Assembly (NCBI GenBank): GCA_040757085.1
Contig: JBFLXJ010000033.1
Span: 28,751-92,750, forward strand
Direction: 5' to 3'
Source of the DNA: Bacillota bacterium
Lineage (GTDB): Bacteria; Bacillota; Sulfobacillia; JACIYH01
Length of the DNA stretch: 64,000 nucleotides
Of the stretch, positions 23,873 through 50,878 are shown piece after piece. The notes beneath the pieces were generated by a model. That model worked only from the letters and a program-made list of their open reading frames with translations, was not told where the DNA came from and ran no database searches. Each line of letters starts with the position of its first letter. Position 1 is the first letter of the stretch. The translations under genes and the position numbers were made by a program.

Positions 23873-26800
23873 CTAACTCACCTCTCCGGCGGCGTAGACG
23901 GCGCCATCCCCCAGCAAATCCTGTAACTCCCACCGCAACTCGTTGGTGTCCTCCACCCAGAGGCCCGGCTCCACCAAAATCGCCTTCTTCCGCCTCACGA
24001 AGTCCACCCGAACGGGCAAACTGCCCGGGTACCGGGCAAGAATGCCCTTCAATTCGCGGAGCGCTTTTTCCTCCTGCTCGACCGTGCGGAGTTCCACCAC
24101 CAGGGAACCCGGGCAGGCCAGGGGGATTACCTCTTCGGCCATCAGCTTGACGACCCGCTGTCCCTCCTCCCCTTCGGATCGCTGCACGGTACCCTTCACC
24201 AGGACAACAGCATCCTTCACCAGGCACCCCCGGAACTTCTCGAAAACCCGCGGAAACACCACCACCTCGACGTGCCCCGACGTATCTTCCAGTTCCACGA
24301 ATCCCATCGGTTCCCCTGCCCTGGTGCTGATGCGCTTTACACCCAGCACCACGCCCCCTACCGTAGCCGTGCTGCCGTCGGTCGCATTGTGCAGGTCTGC
24401 GCAACGGTGGGTGGCACCCTTCTCCAGGTGGGGACGGAAGGGGTCAAGGGGATGGCCCGAGAGATAAAGACCCAGCACTTCTTTTTCCATGGCCAGCAGC
24501 GCGGCCTGGGGAAACTCGGGCACATCCGGGAGCAGATCCTGCGCGGCAAATTCTTCTGCACCCAGGTCGAAGAATGAGAGCTGCCCTGCACCGCGTGCTT
24601 CACCCTGCCCCCGCTCCAGGGCCTGATCCAGGATGCCCAGAAGCTGGGCTCGCTTCGCCCCCAGGCTGTCGAATGCCCCTGCCTTGATGAGGCTTTCCAC
24701 TGCCCGCCGGTTGAGGTGGCGGGTGTCCACCCGCTCGCAGAAGTCGTGCAGGGAACGGAAGGGGCCCTGCTCTCGCGCCCGCAGGATGGACTCGATGGCC
24801 GCCCGCCCCAGGTTCTTGATGGCACCCAGCCCGAAGCGAATGGCATCCCGGCCGCTTGCGTCCTTCTCGATGCTGAATTCCAGTTCCCCCCGGTTGACGT
24901 CCGGAGGCAGCAGAGTCACTCCCAACCGCCGGCATTCTTCGACGTATACCGCCACGTCGTCGGTGGAGTCCATGACCGACGTCAGCAGTGCCACCATGTA
25001 CTGCAGGGGATAATGCGCCTTGAGGTATGCGGTACGATACGCCAGCAAGGCGTACGCCGCGGCATGGCTACGGTTGAAGGCATAGCCGGCGAACCGCTCG
25101 ATGGCCGAGAAAACCTGCTCCGCCACCTGGCGGTCTACCCCGCGGCTGACGGCTCCCTCGATAAAACGCACCCTCTGCGCCGCCACCAGTTCCGGCTTCT
25201 TCTTGGCCATCCCGCGCCGGAGGATGTCAGCCTGGGCCAGGGTGAATCCCGCCAGTTGAGATACCACCTGCATGACCTGTTCCTGGTATATCATCACGCC
25301 GTAAGTATCCTTCAGGATGGGCTCCAGGCTAGGATGAAGATACCGTGCCCCCTCCTGCTTGGCCCGCTGGTATTCGGGTATCTGTTCCATAGGCCCGGGG
25401 CGCACCAGGGCCACGATGGCCACAATGTCTTCGAAGGTGGCGGGGCGCAGCTGGCGCAGGAGATCCTGAACCCAGCCCGCTTCCAGCTGGAATATGCCCA
25501 GTGTTTCCCCCCGGCTCAGGAGAGCGTACACGGCCGGATCATCCAGCGGGATGGTGTGCCAGTCCACTTCCTCTCCTGTCCTGCCCACCAGCTTCACGGC
25601 GTGGTCGATGACGGTGAGGTTGCGCAGGCCCAGGAAATCCATCTTGAGGAGGCCCAGTTCCTCCAGCACCTCCATGGGGAACTGGGTCACCACCGCCCCC
25701 TCGGGGGTCTTCTGCAGGGGCACCAGGTCGATCAGCGGTTCGGGCGCGATGACCACCCCGGCGGCGTGGACGGAAGCGTGCCGGGGCATGCCCTCGATCT
25801 GGCGGGCCAGGTCCACCACCTCGCGCACTTCCTCCCGGCCTCGATATGCCTGGGCCAGGTCGGGACTGGTCTCCAGGGCCTGGTCCAGGGTGATACCCAG
25901 CACGGGAGGCACCATCTTGGCGATGCGGTCCACTTCCCCGTAGGGGAGCCCCAGGGCGCGGCCCACATCGCGGATGGCCGCGCGTGCCTTCATGGTGCCG
26001 AAGGTGACGATCTGGGCCACGCAATCCTGCCCGTACTTTCCCACCACGTACCGGATCACTTCGTCCCGCCGCTCGAAGCAGAAGTCGATGTCCATGTCCG
26101 GCATGGAAACCCGCTCGGGGTTGAGGAAACGCTCAAAAAGCAGACCGTGGCGCAAAGGATCCACGTCCGTGATCCCCAGGACGTATGCCACCAGGCTGCC
26201 GGCCGCCGACCCCCGCCCCGGCCCTACCGGGATACCGTGCTGCCGGGCGAACTCCACGAAGTCCCAGACGATGAGGAAATAACCGGGATAGCCCATGCGC
26301 TCGATCATGCTCAGTTCGTATTCCAGCCGCTCCATCACTTCGGGCGGGGCCTGGGGGTAACGCCGCGGCAGACGCTGGTAACAAAGGTGACGCAGGTAAG
26401 AAGCCTCGGTTTCCCCCTCGGGTACCGGGAACTGGGGCAGGTGAAGCTGCCCGAAGCGCAGTTCAACCTGGCAGTTCTCCGCTATCTCCACGGTGGCCCC
26501 CAGGGCCTCGGGCAACTCGCGGAAGAGGTGTCCCATCTCCTGGGGGGAGCGCAGGTAAAACTGGTCAGACCCGAAGCGCAGGCGTCCGGGATCATCCACC
26601 GTGCTCTGGGTCTGGATACACAGGAGCACGTCGTGCATGCGGGCGTCCGCCTGTTCCAGGTAGTGGACGTCATTGGTCGCCACCAGGCCCACGCCCATCT
26701 CCCTGGCAAGGCGCACCAGCTCCCGGTTGACCTGGCGCTGGGTGGGAAGGCCGTTCTCTTGCACTTCCAGGTAGAAGGAATCGGCCCCGAACAGGTCGCG

Positions 26801-27289
26801 GTAGCGGGCCACGATCTCCCGCGCTCGCGCCCCGTCCTCCAGGACGGCCCGCGGCACCTCTCCCGCCAGGCAGGCGCTGAGGGCGATGAGGCCCCCATGG
26901 TGCCTCTCCAGCAGTTCCCAGTCCACCCGGGGCCGGTAGTAGAATCCCTCCATGTGGGCCAGGGAAACGAGGCGCATGAGGTTGCGGTAACCTTGCTGGT
27001 CCCGGGCCAGGAGCACCAGGTGGTGGGGATCCTCGTCCACCCTGGGTTGGCGGTCGTGCCTGGTGCGGCGGGCGACGTACACCTCGCATCCCAGGATGGG
27101 TTTGACACCGTGCTGCAGGCAGGCCTGGTAGAAGGGCACCACCCCGTACATGACACCGTGGTCGGTTATGGCCAGGGCGCTCATCCCCATGGCCGCAGCC
27201 CGGGGGACCACCTGCTCAATGCGAGCTGCCCCGTCCAGCAGGCTGAATTCGGTGTGCAGATGGAGGTGATTGAATGCGGCGGCACCCAT
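23873..27289 (-). CDS. dnaE: DNA polymerase III alpha subunit (DnaE type)
   Basis: The PHP-domain N-terminus reads FNHLHLHTEFSLLDGA. The length is ~1140 aa. An ATG at 27289 follows AAGGGGGAG. Confidence 0.9.
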   Translation of the reverse strand: MGAAAFNHLHLHTEFSLLDGAARIEQVVPRAAAMGMSALAITDHGVMYGVVPFYQACLQHGVKPILGCEVYVARRTRHDRQPRVDEDPHHLVLLARDQQGYRNLMRLVSLAHMEGFYYRPRVDWELLERHHGGLIALSACLAGEVPRAVLEDGARAREIVARYRDLFGADSFYLEVQENGLPTQRQVNRELVRLAREMGVGLVATNDVHYLEQADARMHDVLLCIQTQSTVDDPGRLRFGSDQFYLRSPQEMGHLFRELPEALGATVEIAENCQVELRFGQLHLPQFPVPEGETEASYLRHLCYQRLPRRYPQAPPEVMERLEYELSMIERMGYPGYFLIVWDFVEFARQHGIPVGPGRGSAAGSLVAYVLGITDVDPLRHGLLFERFLNPERVSMPDMDIDFCFERRDEVIRYVVGKYGQDCVAQIVTFGTMKARAAIRDVGRALGLPYGEVDRIAKMVPPVLGITLDQALETSPDLAQAYRGREEVREVVDLARQIEGMPRHASVHAAGVVIAPEPLIDLVPLQKTPEGAVVTQFPMEVLEELGLLKMDFLGLRNLTVIDHAVKLVGRTGEEVDWHTIPLDDPAVYALLSRGETLGIFQLEAGWVQDLLRQLRPATFEDIVAIVALVRPGPMEQIPEYQRAKQEGARYLHPSLEPILKDTYGVMIYQEQVMQVVSQLAGFTLAQADILRRGMAKKKPELVAAQRVRFIEGAVSRGVDRQVAEQVFSAIERFAGYAFNRSHAAAYALLAYRTAYLKAHYPLQYMVALLTSVMDSTDDVAVYVEECRRLGVTLLPPDVNRGELEFSIEKDASGRDAIRFGLGAIKNLGRAAIESILRAREQGPFRSLHDFCERVDTRHLNRRAVESLIKAGAFDSLGAKRAQLLGILDQALERGQGEARGAGQLSFFDLGAEEFAAQDLLPDVPEFPQAALLAMEKEVLGLYLSGHPLDPFRPHLEKGATHRCADLHNATDGSTATVGGVVLGVKRISTRAGEPMGFVELEDTSGHVEVVVFPRVFEKFRGCLVKDAVVLVKGTVQRSEGEEGQRVVKLMAEEVIPLACPGSLVVELRTVEQEEKALRELKGILARYPGSLPVRVDFVRRKKAILVEPGLWVEDTNELRWELQDLLGDGAVYAAGEVS

Positions 27290-43913: not shown

Positions 43914-46900
43914 TTAGCCGCAACGGGAGAAACCGCAGAAATGGCAGACCAGGCACCCGCTTTCGTGAGTGAGGTGGCCACCGCACTCGGGGCAGGCACC
44001 CATGTGGTTGTCGACGGGATCGAGACTCACTGCCATCTGATCCCAGGAATGCTGGCCGACACTGCCGGGGTTGGGAGAAATGCTCTCCCGGGCCGTATTC
44101 TCTCGGGCCGCAGCCTTCCGTTTCAGATAGCGCTCCAGCACAATGCCGATGGCGTCCGGGCAGGAAAGCACCATTCCACCGCCTTCCACCCAGGCAGGCG
44201 ACGGGCAGCGGATGCCCCGCAATTCCTTCACGACAGACTCCGGCCGGACTCCCGAACGCAACGCCAGCGATATGAGCCGGGCCACCGCCTCGGACTGGGA
44301 TGACGCACAGCCGCCCGACTTGCCCATGGAGGCGAACACCTCGCACAGGCCGTACTCGTCCTCATTGATGGTCACGTACAGGTTCCCGCAGCCCGTCCTT
44401 ATGCGCTCGGTGCTGCCGTGGGTGACCGATGGCCTGGCCCTTGGCGTAATCCCTCCCCGGCCCCCCGCAGGCGCCGCCGCAAGCCGGGGCTCTGCCGCGC
44501 CTTCCCGCACCACCGGGCCGACGGCCGGGCGCTCTTCCGCGCTCTCTCCCCCGGCTCGCACGGGCTCCTCGGGCGCCACACGCACCTGGCCCGGAACACC
44601 GCCCGAAACAGCCTGAGAGCGCCCGAGTTCCGCCTGCCGCGGCAGCTCCCCGGGCGGCTCCTCTCCCTTCCGCACCGTGCCCACGTTCAGCACCTGCTCC
44701 TCCCGACTCCGGTCACGATATATGGTCACGCCCTTGCACCCCAGTTCGTACGCCAGGAAGTAAACCTTCGCCACGTCCTCGCGCGTGGCCTCGTTGCACA
44801 TATTCACCGTCTTGGAGACGGCATTGTCCGTGTGCGTCTGAAAAGCGGCCTGCATGCGGATGTGCCATTCGGGATCGATCTGCAGGGCGGTGACGAACAC
44901 CCGCTGCCACCGCTCGGGGACGCCGGGTAGCCCCCGGACCGAGCCGCGCTCCGCCACCAGCCGCATCAGCTCCGGGCTGTAAAACCCCTCTCTCCTGGCC
45001 ACTTCCTCGAAGATCGGGTTGACTTCGACCAGTTGCTGGCCTTCCAAAACCTTGCGGAAGAAGGCCAGGGCGAACAGGGGCTCGATACCGGAAGAGCAAC
45101 CCGCGATGATGCTGATGGTGCCCGTGGGTGCAATAGTGGTGAGGGTGGCGTTCCGCACGGGAGGACCGTCCCGGAACACGCTGTGGGAGAAATTTGGAAA
45201 CGCCCCCCGTTCCCGTGCCAGCTGGCGAGTTGCCTCCCGTGCCTCGCGGTGGATGAACCCCATCACCTCGTCAGCCAGGCGCAGTGCCTCGGAGGAATCG
45301 TAGGGGATCCCCAGCTTGATGAGCATGTCCGCCCAGCCCATCACGCCCAGGCCGATCTTGCGGTTGCCCCGGGCCATCTTTTCGATTTCGGGCAGGGGGT
45401 ATTTGTTTGCGTCTATGATGTTATCCAGAAAACGGACGCCCAGACGGGTAATCCGGGAAAGCTCATCCCAATCTATCGCCTCCCTGGCGTAGGCCAGCAG
45501 TTCCTCGCCCCTCAAATCCCAAACCCGCAGTTTTTCCCATGACTCCGCGCCCGGCCTCACCGCAAGCGAAAGGTTGATGGACCCCAGGCAGCACGCCTCG
45601 TACGGGAGCAGAGGTTGCTCCCCGCAGTTGTGGGCACATATCCCGTTGGCGTCAAAGGCGTTGACGCCGGGGACCCGCACGTCGTAGACCTCCTCGACAC
45701 CGTCCTCCTTGACCGCCAGGACGGTGGCCACGAACCGCTCGCGGTTCAACGTGCGCCGGCAGGCACGGAGGAGCAATGCGAGCTTCCGCGCCTTGACGCT
45801 ATCGCCAAAGCCAATCCGTTCCGCAAACACGGCCACGTTATCGCCGCTGATGACTAACTCGTGCCGGGTCGTGCCCCTGTACTCTCTGGCCCGTCCTTTG
45901 CCATCCGGCATCAGCCGGGCAGCAGGCGGCCGCCGCTCCTCATGGATGGTGCTCACCATGCCCAGCCTGAGCAGCATGCGCTGGACCAAACGCAAAAGAT
46001 CAAGGCTGCTCTGGGACAGGCGGATGCTCACGCCCTTTTCCTGGCTCCCCTGGACCGAGCCGGCGCAGTCAAAGAGGCCGCGCAGGAAGCCCCGGTAGCC
46101 CTCTGACGAAGCGCGTTCGATCTCCGGGGAAACCGCCTTGGCGCCCGGACGCATCCCCATCCGCCCCGCCAGCACCTCCAAAGCAGCCGAATTGAGGCGG
46201 AAGTCCCCGCAACCGGTGAGCGGTACCCACCCGGTGAAGTCCATGCGGTGCGGCACTGCCTCCGCGCACCCCAGCGCAAGCCGCATGGCCGCGGACGCTC
46301 CCCCATGCGCGGGCGGGCCGTCGACCGCTTCCCACACCGCTCCCCCTCCTGCCGCCACGCCGCCAGACGCTTCCTCCCCGGAGCACACAGCCAGGACAGC
46401 TGCATTTTTCTTGAGCACTCCGTCGCCGGCCAGCAGGCCGAGCAGATAACCCTCACCCTCGCTCAACTCTCCGGTCCAGCCGGGAAGCGACCGATGGTCG
46501 TGCAGGACGATCCGGTCGCCGGGCTTGAGTTCCCCCGCCCTGACCCACTCGCAGCCAATACGGTAGCGCGCACGGTCGACCAAGCGCAGGACCCGATGGT
46601 CGGCGGTGAGCCGGACGCTGTACCCCTCCCGGGTGGATAGCCTCACGACCGGCCTGGTCGCTGTCCTGAAAAAGCCCTCTTTCCCGGTCTTGTAGCACAC
46701 GCCGTTGATAACTGCTTCGAAAGGCCGGCCCACCAGTTCCCGCACCTGGCGCGGGCCTTCACCCGTCATCACCCAGGTATCACCGGTGACACAGGGGTTG
46801 GTGCTCTCGATCTCGCCCAGTTCGGGGGTGGGGTTGTCCCGGTTCAGGCGATCCAGAAAGACGATGCCCGGCTCCCCGTTCCGCCACGCCCCCTCCACGA

Positions 46901-47810
46901 TACGGTCGAAAACATCGCGCGCCCGCAGGCGACCCACTGCCTCCCCGGTACGGGGGTTGACCAGGTCGTACTCACGGTCTTCCCGCACCGCACGCATGAA
47001 CTCTTCCGTAATCCCCACCGAGATGTTGAAGTTGGTGATGTCGGCGTTGTCCTGCTTGCAGGTGATGAACTCCATAATGTCGGGGTGATCCACCCGCAAG
47101 ATACCCATATTCGCTCCGCGACGCGTGCCCCCTTGCTTTATGGCTTCGGTGGCGGCGTTGAATACCCGCATGAAGGACACCGGCCCGGAGGCAACGCCAC
47201 CGGTGGTACGCACCACGTCGTTCTTGGGGCGAAGCCGCGAGAAGCTCATGCCCGTGCCGCCCCCCGATTGGTGGATGAGGGCAGCATGTTTGATACTTTC
47301 AAAAATCCCCACCAGGGAGTCGTCCACGGGCAGGACGAAGCAGGCCGACAACTGGCTCAGTTCCCGCCCCGCATTCATCAGGGTGGGCGAGTTGAACATG
47401 AACCTCTTCTCCGTCATGGCGTCGTACAGCCGATCCTGGAAAGAGCGGATGCCGGCACTTTCTCGCTCCATCACCCTGGCCAGTTCGTCAAAAGGCACCC
47501 TCATGTGCCCGTGCCTGTCCAGCCATATGTAGGCGCGCTGCAACATCTCCCAATCCCAGCGGGTCAGTCCCTCCAGTACTCCCAGCCGCTCCGGCCACCC
47601 CGCCGGCGGAGTCCCCGGTTCGCCATGGGGAGTCTGACCTCCCTCGGGATCATATACCTCAACCAGATACAGACCTTCCACCAGTGCGATGTTCCGTGCT
47701 ACCCGCCGGAACAACTGCTCCGGAGTCTCCACCACCTTCCCGCTGGCATCCTTGGCCAGGTACCGCTTCCGCAACACCACCAGGCCGTTCTCACTCAACT
47801 GCAGTTCTGC
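43914..47810 (-). CDS. nrdJ: adenosylcobalamin-dependent (class II) ribonucleoside-diphosphate reductase, interrupted by an intein and carrying a C-terminal zinc-finger tail
   Basis: The N-terminus reads ENGLVVLRKRYLAKD. The catalytic region is FNSPTLMNAGRELSQLSACFVLPV. The catalytic loop STNP/CGEQPLLPYEACCLGSINLS is split by ~389 aa. The C-terminus has CPECGG...CLVCHFCGFSRCG. I prefer the GTG at 47810, 5 nt after GGGAGGGGAG. Confidence 0.85.
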   Translation of the reverse strand, partial: AELQLSENGLVVLRKRYLAKDASGKVVETPEQLFRRVARNIALVEGLYLVEVYDPEGGQTPHGEPGTPPAGWPERLGVLEGLTRWDWEMLQRAYIWLDRHGHMRVPFDELARVMERESAGIRSFQDRLYDAMTEKRFMFNSPTLMNAGRELSQLSACFVLPVDDSLVGIFESIKHAALIHQSGGGTGMSFSRLRPKNDVVRTTGGVASGPVSFMRVFNAATEAIKQGGTRRGANMGILRVDHPDIMEFITCKQDNADITNFNISVGITEEFMRAVREDREYDLVNPRTGEAVGRLRARDVFDRIVEGAWRNGEPGIVFLDRLNRDNPTPELGEIESTNPCVTGDTWVMTGEGPRQVRELVGRPFEAVINGVCYKTGKEGFFRTATRPVVRLSTREGYSVRLTADHRVLRLVDRARYRIGCEWVRAGELKPGDRIVLHDHRSLPGWTGELSEGEGYLLGLLAGDGVLKKNAAVLAVCSGEEASGGVAAGGGAVWEAVDGPPAHGGASAAMRLALGCAEAVPHRMDFTGWVPLTGCGDFRLNSAALEVLAGRMGMRPGAKAVSPEIERASSEGYRGFLRGLFDCAGSVQGSQEKGVSIRLSQSSLDLLRLVQRMLLRLGMVSTIHEERRPPAARLMPDGKGRAREYRGTTRHELVISGDNVAVFAERIGFGDSVKARKLALLLRACRRTLNRERFVATVLAVKEDGVEEVYDVRVPGVNAFDANGICAHNCGEQPLLPYEACCLGSINLSLAVRPGAESWEKLRVWDLRGEELLAYAREAIDWDELSRITRLGVRFLDNIIDANKYPLPEIEKMARGNRKIGLGVMGWADMLIKLGIPYDSSEALRLADEVMGFIHREAREATRQLARERGAFPNFSHSVFRDGPPVRNATLTTIAPTGTISIIAGCSSGIEPLFALAFFRKVLEGQQLVEVNPIFEEVARREGFYSPELMRLVAERGSVRGLPGVPERWQRVFVTALQIDPEWHIRMQAAFQTHTDNAVSKTVNMCNEATREDVAKVYFLAYELGCKGVTIYRDRSREEQVLNVGTVRKGEEPPGELPRQAELGRSQAVSGGVPGQVRVAPEEPVRAGGESAEERPAVGPVVREGAAEPRLAAAPAGGRGGITPRARPSVTHGSTERIRTGCGNLYVTINEDEYGLCEVFASMGKSGGCASSQSEAVARLISLALRSGVRPESVVKELRGIRCPSPAWVEGGGMVLSCPDAIGIVLERYLKRKAAARENTARESISPNPGSVGQHSWDQMAVSLDPVDNHMGACPECGGHLTHESGCLVCHFCGFSRCG
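45627..46793 (-). mobile_element. intein (~389 aa) with a LAGLIDADG homing-endonuclease domain, inserted at the catalytic cysteine codon of nrdJ
   Basis: The insert starts with CVTGDTWV and contains LTADHRV (a TxxH-like block). Two LAGLIDADG-like blocks are present, LLGLLAGDGVL and GFLRGLFDCAGSV. It ends VYDVRVPGVNAFDANGICAHN, directly before a Cys. The flanks rejoin as the canonical STNPCGEQPLL. Confidence 0.8.
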
Positions 47811-47875
47811 CACTTCATCTCCCCTCCCCGTCCGGGCCCAACTCGCCTGCCTCATCCACCCCCTTCTTCCGCACC

Positions 47876-48487
47876 CTACCCCCCGCCCGCGCCACGCCCG
47901 CAATCGCCACTGCCGGGCCCCCCGCCGTGCGCGCTGGCCCCGCTGCCGCCGCCCCCACTCCCGCCGCCGCTGCCGTGGACCCCGCTGCCGTGGCTCCCGC
48001 TGCCCCCAAGACCGGGCGCTTCCTGTCCGCACTCGCGCTCCCGCAGCAGGCGCTGCACCTCCTCGGCAAACCGCCTAAGGTCGGCAAACTGCCGGTACAC
48101 GGAGGCAAAACGCACATAGGCCACCTCGTCCAGCTCCCGCAGGTGCTCCATCACCATCTCGCCGATGACCCTTGACTCCACCTCCCGCTCCCCCCGGGAG
48201 CGTAATTCCTTCTCGATATCCTGGACCACCGCATGCAGGCGCTCCGAAGGCACCGGGCGCTTCTCACACGCCTTCAGCAAACCGGCCAGGATTTTGCCGG
48301 AGTCGAAGCGTTCCCGGCGTCCATCCTTCTTGACCACCACCAGGGGGGGCTCGTCCACCTTCTCGTAAGTCGTGAAGCGGCGGTGGCAATCCTCACACTC
48401 CCGCCGCCTCCGGATGACGGTCCCGTCCTCGGTGGGGCGAGAGTCCAGAACCCTGCTCTCGGGAAACCCGCAGTACGGACACTTCAC
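47876..48487 (-). CDS. nrdR: transcriptional repressor NrdR with a ~50-aa Gly/Ser-rich C-terminal tail
   Basis: A GTG at 48487 gives the canonical N-terminus MKCPYCG...SRVLDSR (zinc ribbon) followed by an ATP-cone. The tail reads [36 protein letters not shown]. Confidence 0.8.
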
Positions 48488-48578
48488 GGTAAACACCTCA
48501 GGGCAGCAAATCTGGTTGCGTGACGCAGGGACGCGCGGCGGTATCCGGCCTGGCGAGCCATACTACCGCACTAAAGTT

Positions 48579-48633
48579 TCACCCATATGTTGACCCGGCA
48601 CACACATTATACCACCATATTTGGGGCTGGCAA
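48579..48633 (-). promoter_or_regulatory. putative nrdR-nrdJ promoter (TTGCCA-16-TGgTATAAT) overlapped by two AT-rich repeats, candidate NrdR boxes
   Basis: Minus-strand reading gives TTGCCA (48633-48628), a 16-nt spacer, then TATAAT (48611-48606). The repeats CAAATATGGTGG (48624-48612) and CAACATATGGGTG (48591-48579) lie about 33 bp apart, centre to centre, in an AT-rich patch. Confidence 0.4.
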
Positions 48634-48699
48634 GCCCCCGCCAGGGACATGCTCGGCCAGCGAAGCGCAACCAGCGGCACCTCGCTGCACCGTGAGGGG

Positions 48700-49026
48700 T
48701 CAGGCTCGCTCGGGTTCGTCCTGGCGTTTCCCGCGTTCCCTCAGGCACACTCTCCCCAGCAGCACCCACTGCCTGCGCCCGGCCCCGCGATCCAGATACA
48801 GCCGAAAACGCTCCCCGTCCTCGGTCTCCACCTCGTAGCAGGTGCGGTGCCTCCTCTGATACCACTTCTTCCGAGTCGGAGCCGCCACACCAAAACCGTA
48901 ATCGTCCCACCGGGCCACCACTGCCTTCACCCGGTACTGCCGGCCCGCCCAGGTAAAGCTGATCGGCCGCTTCCACCCCGGCTCCTGAACCCATTCCACG
49001 CCCACCGGCCTGCCAATGAACTCCAT
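48700..49026 (-). CDS. conserved-looking small hypothetical protein (108 aa)
   Basis: The ORF reads WKRPISFTWAGRQYRVKAVVARWDDYGFG...RTCYEVETEDGERFRLYLD. The pattern is non-random and looks like a domain, but I cannot name the family. Confidence 0.45.
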   Translation of the reverse strand: MEFIGRPVGVEWVQEPGWKRPISFTWAGRQYRVKAVVARWDDYGFGVAAPTRKKWYQRRHRTCYEVETEDGERFRLYLDRGAGRRQWVLLGRVCLRERGKRQDEPERA

Positions 49027-49049
49027 GCTTCCATCCCCCGGCTGCCAAC

Positions 49050-49805
49050 TCAGCCGTGCTTTACGGACTTGCGGAGGTACAGGGCACTGACCTCGTTCAG
49101 GAATACCACCCGGGGATCATCCTCGGGGATGTCCCGGAGGGGCAATAATCCCTCTCCTTTCCGCCTGATGCCAGTATAACTCAGATCCTCCGGGCGGATG
49201 GTCACCAGTTTGACCTCGTGCTGCTCGCTAAGACCCCTCTTCATGAGGTCCCGTGCCATCGTTTGCCTGGCCTTGTCAGTATCCGGGTACGCTTCGGTCG
49301 GGCCGGAGTGCTGCGGGCCGTTGAATTCGAAGGCCACGCCACAGGTGTACCATCTATCATATTCCATCCTTTCGCCTGTTAGGGGGTTGACCAGGAAACC
49401 GGGGCGGGCGTTGTCGGTGTAATCATCCGAATCAACGGTCAGAGTGAGCCATTCCTTCATGATGGCCTCTCCCTTGAACTCCGCGCGGTCGAGCCGCCTC
49501 CGAATAAGGTCCAGATCCCGGCGGATGCGATCCAGCTCGACGTCGTGCAGGATGAACACCGTTCGCCTCGTGCGCCGCACATATTCGAACTCCAACCAGC
49601 CCCGCTCCGCCAACATCCGCAGGTAACTGCGCATGCTGGTCGGGCTACGGACGCCGACCATCTTCATGAGTTCTTCGCGCGTAGGTGAACACCGCCTGTT
49701 TGCCCGAGAGCAGAAACTGGCCAGCACCAGGTAAGTAACCTTGGCCTCGGGTGGCAACGCCGGATCCCTCACCAAACCAACTGGCACATACACCCAGTTG
49801 TGCAC
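49050..49805 (-). CDS. hypothetical protein with an N-terminal winged-HTH-like region and a C-terminal DUF559/Vsr-like (PD-(D/E)xK-fold) domain
   Basis: The wHTH-like part reads TYLVLASFCSRANRRCSPTREELMKMVGVRSPTSMRSYLRMLAERGWLEF. The C-terminal part reads GVAFEFNGPQH...DKARQTMARDLMKRG...EVKLVTIRPEDL and resembles DUF559, with N in place of the usual catalytic D. I prefer the GTG at 49805, 9 nt after GGGAGGCAAGGAGGG. Confidence 0.5.
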   Translation of the reverse strand: MHNWVYVPVGLVRDPALPPEAKVTYLVLASFCSRANRRCSPTREELMKMVGVRSPTSMRSYLRMLAERGWLEFEYVRRTRRTVFILHDVELDRIRRDLDLIRRRLDRAEFKGEAIMKEWLTLTVDSDDYTDNARPGFLVNPLTGERMEYDRWYTCGVAFEFNGPQHSGPTEAYPDTDKARQTMARDLMKRGLSEQHEVKLVTIRPEDLSYTGIRRKGEGLLPLRDIPEDDPRVVFLNEVSALYLRKSVKHG

Positions 49806-50002
49806 CTGGCACACCCCTCCTTGCCTCCCATAATTTAACACAGGCGCTGCCCTTTCCTCCCACACCGTCCAGACCGTCAGCCCGGTAACTGTGTTGTCCG
49901 GCAAAACACCGTCACCCAGGTGACACTACACCCCTGTATGCTTTACATAAAACCGGTCCCCCAGGTTATGTCCCCGGGTATGGCGCCCAACTGCCGCACA
50001 CC

Positions 50003-50051
50003 GTCAGCCGGCTGACAGTCCGGAACGCAGGAATACGGTCAGCTAGCTGAC
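50003..50051. repeat. two perfect 14-bp palindromes of one family, 21 nt apart, plus a nearby half-site
   Basis: GTCAGCCGGCTGAC is at 50003-50016 and GTCAGCTAGCTGAC at 50038-50051. A half-site GGTCAGCCGGC is at 50103-50113. They lie between sfsA and the wHTH/DUF559 gene. Confidence 0.5.
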
Positions 50052-50104
50052 TGCATGGCAGGCGCCGGATACCGGGGAACCGGCCGATGCCGGTGCCGAC
50101 GCGG

Positions 50105-50878
50105 TCAGCCGGCAGGCGGCACCGCGGACAGGCAAACCGGGAGGGGCTCGGCCAGCACGATTTCCTTCCGGGAGACGCGGCATTTTCCCGCCAGGACCAG
50201 GACGCCGCGACCAGCAGCATCGACCAGGGCAGCAGCAAAGGCGGGATCTGTATCGCGGTTGGGGGCAAAGCAGCATGCATCGGCGCGCTGAACCACAAAT
50301 ACCACTGCCGCCGCCGGTGCCAACCGGGCCAGTCCCTCCAGGTGACGCCTGCCCCGTACAGTCGGTGCATCCGGGAATAAGGCCACGCCGTGCCGCACCA
50401 GCGTCACCGACTTGCACTCGATCATCCAGCCGCCCACCGCCAGGTCGAACCGTCCCCGGCCCCAGGTGGGTTCCCTGACCAGCCTCCCCCACCCGGACGC
50501 GCCCAGCGCCTCCGCCACCAGCAGGGGAGGCAGGCGGGCGTCCACGCAAACCAGTCCTCCCCTGGACTCAACCAGGAGGAGGTCCGCCGCAGTTCGCCTA
50601 CCTCCACTTTCAGGCGGGGTATCCTGCCAAGCACCTGCAGGCGGCCACGCCTCAGCCCGAACGGAGCCCGCTACCGCCCGGCGCCCAATGCCTGCCGCTG
50701 CATGCAGCCAGCCCGGTGGAGCCAGCCAGACCCGGGCACCGGAGACGAGCAATTCGAGCAGCCGTCCGCTGTTGGGGACGTGCACCGGTATGATCCCATG
50801 GCCTGCGCTGACCCGGGCGGAAAACCGCGAAGTACGTTCGATAAACTGGCCGGGCAAAAGGTGGGGAGGAAGTTTCAT
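50105..50878 (-). CDS. sfsA: sugar fermentation stimulation protein A homologue
   Basis: FIERTSRFSARV at the N-terminus and the internal ECKSVTL...FPDAPTVRG are typical of SfsA. Confidence 0.7.
   Translation of the reverse strand: MKLPPHLLPGQFIERTSRFSARVSAGHGIIPVHVPNSGRLLELLVSGARVWLAPPGWLHAAAGIGRRAVAGSVRAEAWPPAGAWQDTPPESGGRRTAADLLLVESRGGLVCVDARLPPLLVAEALGASGWGRLVREPTWGRGRFDLAVGGWMIECKSVTLVRHGVALFPDAPTVRGRRHLEGLARLAPAAAVVFVVQRADACCFAPNRDTDPAFAAALVDAAGRGVLVLAGKCRVSRKEIVLAEPLPVCLSAVPPAG

Follow-up and report, generated by a model that had tools for sequence, protein, structure and literature searches.

A winged-helix protein with a predicted Vsr-like nuclease domain, upstream palindromes and a DUF6504 neighbor between sfsA and nrdR of a Bacillota bacterium

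Introduction

The 64,000-nucleotide stretch of Bacillota bacterium contig JBFLXJ010000033.1 that we analysed (the window) holds, between the genes nrdR and sfsA, two small genes encoding proteins of 108 and 251 aa and several copies of a 14-bp palindrome. The question raised by this locus is what the two genes are and how they came to lie together. An original prediction, made from the sequence alone, took them to be a horizontally acquired and possibly degenerate two-gene module of unknown function. The motifs that it quoted, its two open reading frames (ORFs) and its palindromes are all present where it placed them; the module itself is not. We found that the sfsA-nrdR interval consists of three unrelated parts. 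One is the promoter of nrdR, another is an ImuB-C-like gene that is resident there, and the third is a single gene inserted long ago. The product of the inserted gene is an uncharacterised winged-helix DNA-binding domain (DnaD/RepA_N-like) fused to a predicted Vsr-like nuclease domain.

Results

The 251-aa protein joins a winged helix to a predicted nuclease domain

An indexed search returned 261 relatives of the 251-aa protein, and its C-terminal domain gathered 289 clusters at E <= 1e-30 and 1531 at E <= 1e-10 (50%-identity representatives). Nearly all relatives come from Limnochordia, Symbiobacteriaceae, Thermaerobacter, Caldinitratiruptor and unclassified Bacillota metagenome-assembled genomes (MAGs). 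The N-terminal domain resembles winged helices of the RepA_N, DnaD, MarR and Fur types, and in many family members the N-terminal part holds a second winged helix. The C-terminal domain has the three-dimensional similarity to Vsr-type nuclease domains expected of a Vsr-like PD-(D/E)XK fold. Pfam gave only sub-threshold winged-helix matches and left the C-terminal 145 residues unmatched, in a set of 25 members at E up to 10 as well, NCBIfam gave only a sub-threshold LexA match on the winged helix, and a PDB sequence search with the C-terminal profile returned chance matches to eS1 only. The protein matched phrog_270, "replication initiation protein" (E 5e-8), and more weakly phrog_9084, "homing endonuclease" (E 0.0028). 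Neither this protein nor the 108-aa protein matched the PADLOC-DB 2.0 defence models at E up to 1, and a literature search on the winged-helix/Vsr-like family found nothing relevant. In current annotation the members go by "ArsR family regulator", "HTH domain protein" (helix-turn-helix) or "hypothetical", and the nuclease domain has no Pfam model.

The gene starts at a GTG (49805) that lies 8 nt past an AAGGAGG, and the same start is used in orthologues and in independent gene calls. A longer, TTG-initiated ORF of 284 aa was rejected, its start being unused in orthologues and by independent gene callers. When a phage collection was searched with the nuclease domain we saw one weak match (29% identity over 118 residues, E 2e-3), to the C-terminus of gp067, a 548-aa hypothetical protein of an SPbeta-like Staphylococcus phage encoded near the integrase (L099 1708-3354).

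The catalytic set corresponds to that of the homing endonuclease I-Bth0305I

The original prediction took the 251-aa protein to be DUF559-like, with a Vsr fold and a winged helix, and read the Asn of its GVAFEFNGPQH motif as a lost catalytic Asp. The winged helix and the Vsr-like fold were borne out. Membership in DUF559 was not, as neither Pfam nor NCBIfam gave a C-terminal match: the Pfam DUF559 model matched neither the full protein nor the C-terminal domains of 25 members at E up to 10, and the Vsr models PF03852 and TIGR00632 of the same two collections did not match the protein.

I-Bth0305I is an active homing endonuclease whose catalytic roles have been assigned and which recognises a 14-bp pseudopalindrome as a dimer (PMC3239194). 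Its sequence was taken from the phage record (gp29, 266 aa), in which the residue numbers agree with that paper. In the order I-Bth0305I, Vsr, 251-aa protein, the acid at the start of helix 1 is E170, E25, E113; the catalytic Asp is D196, D51, D150; the extra acid is E206, the F62 position, E160; the variable position is N208, H64, N162; the general base is H213, H69, H166; and the second Asp is D222, D97, D186. The 251-aa protein and I-Bth0305I have equal spacings from D to E (10) and from E to N (2), a Gly after the Asn, 22 residues from the last Asp to an EDL/DEL strand motif, and a common E-xxx-KE-x-L helix motif. The EDxHD residues (E, D, H, D, with Asn at the position of Vsr His64) were recognised by motif and fold, not by significant alignment. 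The only match of hhalign to Vsr paired RPGF with Vsr RPDF; we rejected it because this stretch is part of the beta1-beta2 loop and the pairing is at odds with the hairpin topology.

Residues E113, D150, E160, H166 and D186 show little or no variation in the family, and N162 is found in at least 90% of members. A census of position 162 in 238 parsed relatives gave Asn in 205, Gln in 26, His in 5, Met in 1 and one mis-parse, with Asp in none. Since the active I-Bth0305I itself has Asn at this position (AIEVNG, versus AFEFNG here) and the family never has Asp, Asn162 is the native state and not a lost catalytic Asp. This corrects the reading of an inactivating D-to-N change.

The 251-aa protein and I-Bth0305I (PDB 3R3P; PMC3239194) share the pattern E...D-x9-E-x-N-G-x(2-3)-H...D and a two-part build, with an N-terminal DNA-binding region and a C-terminal nuclease. 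The candidate sites described below have the length and symmetry of the 14-bp I-Bth0305I pseudopalindrome, and free-standing genes occur among known EDxHD members too. In contrast to I-Bth0305I, the 251-aa family has one or two DnaD/RepA_N/MarR-like winged helices and no NUMOD repeats, and the 251-aa gene is chromosomal and lies among housekeeping genes, not in an intron, intein or phage. Its protein has a beta1-beta2 loop 11 residues longer and additional helices at the C-terminus, the candidate sites are found upstream of the gene itself, and its mobility is a proposal. Compared with Vsr (PDB 1CW0), D150, N162, H166, D186 and E113 fall at equivalent positions, and five family members even have His at the H64 position. 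However, the Zn-binding Cys/His cluster of Vsr is lacking (NGPQH here, HGCFWHHHHC in Vsr), there is no adjacent cytosine methyltransferase gene, and a winged helix is added. The pattern D...E-x-(D/N)-G-x-x-H...RD is also that of DUF559 (PF04480; for example NGO0050, PDB 3HRL), a family that is likewise often multi-copy and without assigned function and that is often fused to an N-terminal HTH, but whose third motif residue is Asp where the 251-aa family has N, Q or H.

Paired palindromes lie upstream of the 251-aa gene

The original prediction reported a perfect 14-bp pair 21 nt apart and a half-site. Both are there, but the set was incomplete: a third full site (site C) and a degenerate one (site D) had been overlooked (Table 1). 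The pattern GTCA-N6-TGAC occurs four times in the 64 kb against 0.79 expected; all four fall at 49201-50051, three of them inside the 300-bp intergenic region, and a search of the window for further palindrome copies found none beyond the inserted segment or its edge. With a matrix built from eight sites, sites outside the seed set scored well above background (49876 at 17.6 bits; L001 1572 at 18.1 bits). The sites extend to a palindrome of about 20 bp, ACnGTCAGCnnGCTGACnGT.

We found that the layout of two site pairs is kept in orthologues though the intergenic regions are otherwise unalignable, and that in L001 and L084, too, the pairs are separated by AT-rich sequence comparable to that of the window. 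The window and L001 have near-identical recognition helices (SPTSMRSYLRML, SPTTMRGYLRML) and the same site consensus, while L084 differs in both. Frameshifted L096 has no full site left. The palindromes, enriched and conserved in paired layout, are a real family and best read as protein-binding sites; most likely they are operators or recognition sites of the adjacent 251-aa protein. Closer to the gene, an AT-rich stretch just ahead of the ribosome-binding site (RBS) is a possible extended -10 element, with a similar sequence in L001 (AATTATGG); the promoter scan made no call there.

The RNA of the intergenic region (49860-50110, minus) folds better than shuffled sequences (z -3.4), with the palindrome copies pairing mutually. 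This fold probably just follows from the repetition of the sites. No known riboswitch or small RNA was matched by Rfam at E <= 1 over 48300-50300. Two paralogues have other repeats upstream, in long intergenic regions of 460-750 bp: ATATGAAnnCACnTTC stands twice in tandem at L100 4416-4457, and at L002 5715-5947 a 28-nt unit that includes CGGCATATGTG occurs three times. These may be paralogue-specific operators.

The 251-aa gene is probably an old insertion and its neighbor is resident

The order sfsA, 251-aa gene, DUF6504 gene, nrdR is found in the window and in L001, L084/L085, L004 and L096. In L094, by contrast, sfsA runs into the DUF6504 gene with no trace of the 251-aa gene. This suggests that the 251-aa gene and its 5' region alone were inserted between sfsA and DUF6504. 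The insertion appears to be old because the divergence of the 251-aa protein tracks that of its neighbors: between the window and the clade its identity is 64-65% (58-62% in the two fragments of frameshifted L096), which is comparable to SfsA (58-67%) and lower than NrdR (80-88%) and DUF6504 (74-83%). A gene at the same position in at least five related lineages, diverging in step with SfsA, is not a recent acquisition. The original prediction named conservation of the two genes at this position, with normal composition and housekeeping functions, as evidence that would count against it; the position is conserved, and a housekeeping function was not found.

The 251-aa gene also seems to be dispensable, two of its five orthologues being disrupted while DUF6504 is intact. 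L096 has a frameshift at codon 137 (~3690). L004 (~3938) is 98% identical to L084 (3939-4275) but without 337 bp, a deletion that removes the proximal site, the RBS and about 33 codons. These disruptions may be real decay or assembly errors.

The proposed islet of low guanine-cytosine (GC) content in a context of about 70% GC held only in part. The window has a mean GC of 66.6% (standard deviation (sd) 2.5% in 750-nt windows). At 59.5%, the 251-aa gene is its lowest stretch (0.2th percentile of 750-nt windows, -2.8 sd), but the DUF6504 gene is normal (65.7%), and the first of the AT-rich patches is the nrdR promoter with its NrdR boxes. GC at third codon positions (GC3) is ordinary in the 251-aa gene (0.746; sfsA 0.713). 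Members of the winged-helix/nuclease family lie on average 3.9 GC points under their flanks, with a negative difference in 36 of 41 loci from other genomes, and across the 41 loci their GC follows that of the host from 50 to 69%. Because GC3 is normal and the deficit is family-wide, we rejected the idea that recent horizontal transfer caused the dip. The dip is real but modest, a trait of the family and of its amino-acid composition and no mark of recent transfer.

Nor do the two genes form a module. Each is found without the other, winged-helix paralogues occurring without DUF6504 and DUF6504 in many unrelated contexts without a winged-helix gene. The DUF6504 gene is resident and ancestrally adjacent to sfsA; we call it resident because in the nearest outgroup, L094 (63% identity; 1179-2017), it directly follows sfsA and overlaps it by 13 nt. 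The larger gene alone is inserted, and the two-gene arrangement is an accident of its landing place.

The 108-aa protein is a predicted standalone ImuB C-terminal domain

The 108-aa protein matches Pfam PF20114 (DUF6504) over residues 15-90 (E 1.5e-10; 41.7 bits, where the cut-off is 24.2), and its relatives are all annotated as PF20114. In a tblastn search against plasmids its best matches lay in the 90 residues at the C-terminal end of gene products annotated "DNA polymerase Y family protein", one of which is the ImuB of an imuA-imuB-dnaE2 cassette. The PF20114 model matches residues 430-499 of this ImuB below cut-off (E 0.001), a profile of 23 DUF6504 proteins aligned to the ImuB C-terminus by hhalign with 95.2% probability (E 2.7e-8), and in the reverse tblastn of ImuB against the window the 108-aa ORF was the only match (E 4.5e-5). 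Taken together, these homologies indicate that the 108-aa protein is an ImuB C-terminal domain that stands alone. Its AlphaFold2 model (mean predicted confidence, pLDDT, 82) is all-beta, and comparison of this model with the PDB gave no convincing match.

The standalone ImuB-C class has been tied to operons of Y-family polymerase, DnaE2 and LexA (PMC6511836). Like the ImuB-C proteins of these mutasome operons (PMC6511836; PMC3765255), the 108-aa protein is homologous to the ImuB C-terminus and all-beta as predicted for ImuB-C. Unlike theirs, its gene adjoins no Y-family polymerase, dnaE2 or lexA gene, here and in six other contexts, and is ancestrally coupled to sfsA instead. We found no Y-family polymerase gene in the window, which has only a DnaE-like polymerase, 22 kb from DUF6504. 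These results tie DUF6504 to the ImuB-C domain and reveal a subfamily lacking a polymerase partner. The literature search under the name DUF6504 found no papers, and a metagenome scan for further orthologous DUF6504 loci returned only the already-known locus and two distant ones. A LexA/SOS reading, with a LexA-like winged helix beside ImuB-C, was set aside, as the winged-helix match is generic. To our knowledge the palindrome fits no LexA box.

The neighbors of DUF6504 in the window are sfsA, the winged-helix gene and nrdR, and elsewhere it is found next to sfsA or next to PspC/LiaF genes. The overlap in L094 suggests translational coupling of sfsA and DUF6504, and a functional SfsA/ImuB-C pair is conceivable, SfsA having a PD-(D/E)XK "RE" domain. 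On Armatimonadota-type contigs (L090 733-1095; L092 5001-5324) the DUF6504 gene lies between a glucose-6-phosphate isomerase gene and guaB and overlaps guaB. The guaB (IMP dehydrogenase) and nrdR neighborhoods are a weak hint of a link between DUF6504 and nucleotide metabolism.

The AT-rich patch upstream of nrdR is its promoter

The AT-rich patch at 48570-48633 is the nrdR promoter with two NrdR boxes. A promoter scan found 11 of 12 consensus matches and a TG preceding the -10, invariant at four orthologous loci. In NrdR boxes the positions C4, A6, A8, T9, T11 and G13 are highly conserved and the linker is 15-16 bp (PMC13584703). Both 16-bp boxes here hold all six positions, a 16-bp linker separates them, and they overlap an nrd promoter. 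The promoter and box blocks are unchanged at the four orthologous loci though the surrounding sequence has diverged. In boxes, linker and promoter overlap there is no notable difference from known NrdR operators upstream of nrdR-nrdJ, and we take this as ordinary nrdR-nrdJ autoregulation.

The family elsewhere

Paralogues of the 251-aa gene number three to seven or more in several genomes, and the family is multi-copy in Limnochordia and Symbiobacteriaceae. Caldinitratiruptor, a cultured relative, has three. Evidence of mobile residence consists of one presence/absence case (L094 versus the clade) and one repeated unit in one MAG; yet the gene is vertically stable in the window lineage, as is the abundant paralogue P0118. 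The family has the traits of selfish elements in some genomes and those of a settled chromosomal gene in others.

The repeated unit is found in the long-read Limnochordia MAG JBMNJG01, where 1.8 kb recur in at least seven copies at 92-93% identity (L044 3490-5470; L047, L049, L050, L051, L053, L073). It holds only a family member with two winged helices, 3-5 tandem 93-nt repeats (core CTTCTTGCCGATTTGGGCAATGTAACCGACCTG) and CCCCGACCCGGA 12-mers; two of the copies also carry the motif upstream. The copy examined, that in L044, lies between housekeeping genes. This unit looks like a mobile or homing unit.

Discussion

What, then, does the inserted gene do? We favor, with moderate confidence, an autoregulated winged-helix-guided EDxHD/Vsr-like endonuclease gene, selfish in origin and long fixed in this lineage. 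The protein would act as a dimer whose winged helices read palindromes of 14-20 bp. Upstream of the gene, the two site pairs (spaced 35 bp; 32 bp in L001) stand on either side of an AT-richer stretch, so that their occupancy would repress the gene's own transcription. Cleavage of DNA at a cognate site would fall to the nuclease domain, whose catalytic set is complete. As a selfish gene of homing-endonuclease type, free-standing, the family would persist or spread, which would account for its insertion between conserved genes, the number of paralogues in single genomes and the copies in decay. Here the element would be ancient, vertically inherited and probably co-transcribed with DUF6504.

Several points weigh against this reading. 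BLASTP gave no alignment of the 251-aa protein with I-Bth0305I, and hhalign of the C-terminal profile gave probabilities of 0.7% against I-Bth0305I and 0.4% against E. coli Vsr, neither of them significant, so that the mapping of the active site draws on fold, predicted strand topology and motif identity. Binding of the palindromes by the protein is read from their co-occurrence; the palindrome is absent upstream of about 50 paralogues and the site is specific to this orthologous locus. A nuclease with perfect sites beside its own gene would need a means to avoid cutting itself. The insertion is judged from a single outgroup, loss in L094 being the less parsimonious alternative. Finally, the locus of P0118 is a single stable one in every sample; the behavior of most copies is thus that of ordinary genes of the chromosome.

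The main rival, which we consider unlikely, is a domesticated transcription factor, in which the winged helix binds the palindromes to regulate DUF6504 and perhaps nrdR-nrdJ while the nuclease fold serves dimerisation or ligand sensing without cleavage. It would suit the paired operator layout, typical of repressors, as well as the old and syntenic position of the gene 23 nt upstream of DUF6504, the single stable locus of P0118 and the NCBI label of ArsR-family regulator. Against it, all EDxHD/Vsr catalytic positions are (nearly) invariant across over 230 diverged members, for which a protein without catalytic activity offers no easy reason; moreover, paralogues adjoin unrelated genes and two of the five orthologues are disrupted beside an intact DUF6504. 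The same fold, that of the restriction-endonuclease superfamily, together with multiple copies and variable presence, would also fit a stand-alone defence or restriction-like nuclease in which the winged helix guides a PD-(D/E)XK enzyme against foreign DNA. We think this very improbable: there is no PADLOC match, no methyltransferase or partner gene adjoins in any locus examined, housekeeping genes and no defence island lie on both sides, and perfect candidate sites stand in the gene's own promoter region. Slightly less credible again is that an integrated plasmid or phage left behind its replication module, with a Rep-like initiator (RepA_N/DnaD-like winged helix plus nicking domain) and an origin made of the palindrome pairs and their AT-rich spacer. 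The N-terminal domain does resemble staphylococcal plasmid RepA, DnaD and DnaB, the phrog_270 match is to a replication initiation protein, and repeated sites flank an AT-richer stretch beside the gene. But winged helices of the MarR and Fur types score similarly, which makes the resemblance a generic one, the insertion measures only about 1.1 kb with no other mobile-element genes nearby, and the arrangement is inherited vertically across lineages.

Two further explanations have very little in their favor. If the palindromes were sfsA terminators or hairpin repeats of the repetitive extragenic palindromic (REP) type and not protein sites, the one site that is followed by GTGTTTTG (49925-49910, minus) and flagged as terminator-like would be accounted for, as would the RNA fold. 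The T-run is lacking at the other sites, though, a 6-2-6 palindrome with a 2-nt loop makes a poor hairpin, the fold score is a trivial consequence of several copies of one palindrome, no copies occur elsewhere in the 64 kb as REP-like repeats would, and the fixed 32-35-bp pairing is conserved across orthologues; we regard this as highly improbable. Equally improbable is a recently and horizontally acquired, degenerate two-gene module. The 251-aa gene does have the lowest GC in the window and is an insertion relative to L094, but its GC3 is normal and its deficit shared by the family, its divergence follows that of its neighbors, its catalytic set is intact, and DUF6504 is resident and elsewhere unlinked to the winged-helix family.

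If the favored endonuclease reading is true, the EDxHD type of homing endonuclease reaches beyond the phage introns and inteins from which it is known, to a winged-helix-guided lineage on the chromosomes of thermophilic Firmicutes that have been little studied, and the conserved 14-bp palindromes would be a concrete candidate recognition site for a compact protein-guided nuclease scaffold. It bears on no long-standing open question, and the function is a prediction from sequence. A wider possibility, which we put forward as speculation that is probably wrong in part or whole, is that the 251-aa protein stands for a large lineage of selfish elements, so far undescribed, each a free-standing single gene on a Limnochordia or Symbiobacteriaceae chromosome, in which winged-helix-guided EDxHD/Vsr-like endonucleases home into intergenic sites and repress themselves via their own palindrome arrays. 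The copy in the window would then be ancient and fixed, and the 1.8-kb unit active.

Features of the region

All genes of the nrdJ-sfsA region lie on the minus strand (Table 1).

Table 1. Positions of genes, domains and sites in the region (window coordinates unless a locus is named)
Feature	Position	Strand	Remarks
Inserted segment	49027..50104	minus	251-aa gene and 5' region (~300 bp upstream); relative to the L094 sfsA/DUF6504 junction
251-aa ORF	49050-49805	minus	contains GVAFEFNGPQH
N-terminal winged helix	49485-49805	minus	~residues 1-107
C-terminal Vsr-like/EDxHD-type nuclease domain (predicted)	49050-49484	minus	~residues 108-251
Catalytic-core codons	49308..49358	minus	D150-RWYTCGVAF-E160-F-N162-G163-PQ-H166; E113 and D186 outside the stretch
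AT-rich TTAAATTA	49831..49844	minus	just upstream of AAGGAGG RBS (49816-49822); candidate extended -10 (TGTTAAATT)
Site D	49876..49889		degenerate, GTCAGCCCGGTAAC; 35 bp from site C; 17.6 bits, not a seed of the matrix
Site C	49911..49924		GTCACCCAGGTGAC; full palindrome
AT-richer spacer	49930..49965	minus	contains ACATAAAACC; between the two site pairs; candidate promoter or bending region
Site B	50003..50016		GTCAGCCGGCTGAC; extended form ACnGTCAGCnnGCTGACnGT
Site A	50038..50051		GTCAGCTAGCTGAC; 35 bp from site B, gap 21 nt
Half-site	50104..50117		GTCAGCCGGCAGGC; overlaps sfsA stop codon
Site pairs, window	50038/50003 and 49911/49876		35 bp
Site pairs, L001	1394/1426 and 1540/1572		32 bp
Site pairs, L084	3733/3768 and 3945/3980		35 bp
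108-aa ORF (DUF6504)	48700-49026	minus	contains FTWAGRQYRVKAVVARWDDYGFG and YEVETEDGERFRLYLD
nrdR promoter	48606..48633	minus	-35 TTGCCA (48633-48628), 16-nt spacer, extended -10 TG-n-TATAAT (48611-48606)
NrdR box 1	48612..48627	minus	coincides exactly with promoter spacer; conserved in L001, L084, L096
NrdR box 2	48580..48595	minus	16-bp linker after box 1; inside AT-rich patch CACTAAAGTTTCACCCATATGTTGAC; conserved
nrdR	47876-48496	minus	NrdR confirmed by Pfam
nrdJ	43914 to ~47815	minus	class II ribonucleotide reductase gene, intein-bearing
sfsA	50105-50878	minus	SfsA confirmed by Pfam; followed by flavin reductase gene

The nrdJ gene (43914-47815) contains an intein with a LAGLIDADG endonuclease. 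Pfam matches to Intein_splicing and LAGLIDADG_3 were seen on the L084 and L108 orthologues, and the L001 orthologue (953 aa) is without the intein. NrdR of the window has a Gly/Ser/His-rich C-terminal tail of about 45 residues, so that it measures 206 aa versus 155-174 aa in relatives; the tail is encoded at 47876-48032 (77% GC), where it overlaps a 5' extension of the nrdJ ORF. The C-family DNA polymerase of DnaE type (24092-27274, minus) shares 31.5% identity with a rhizobial DnaE2 across 1085 residues and may be either the housekeeping DnaE or a DnaE2.

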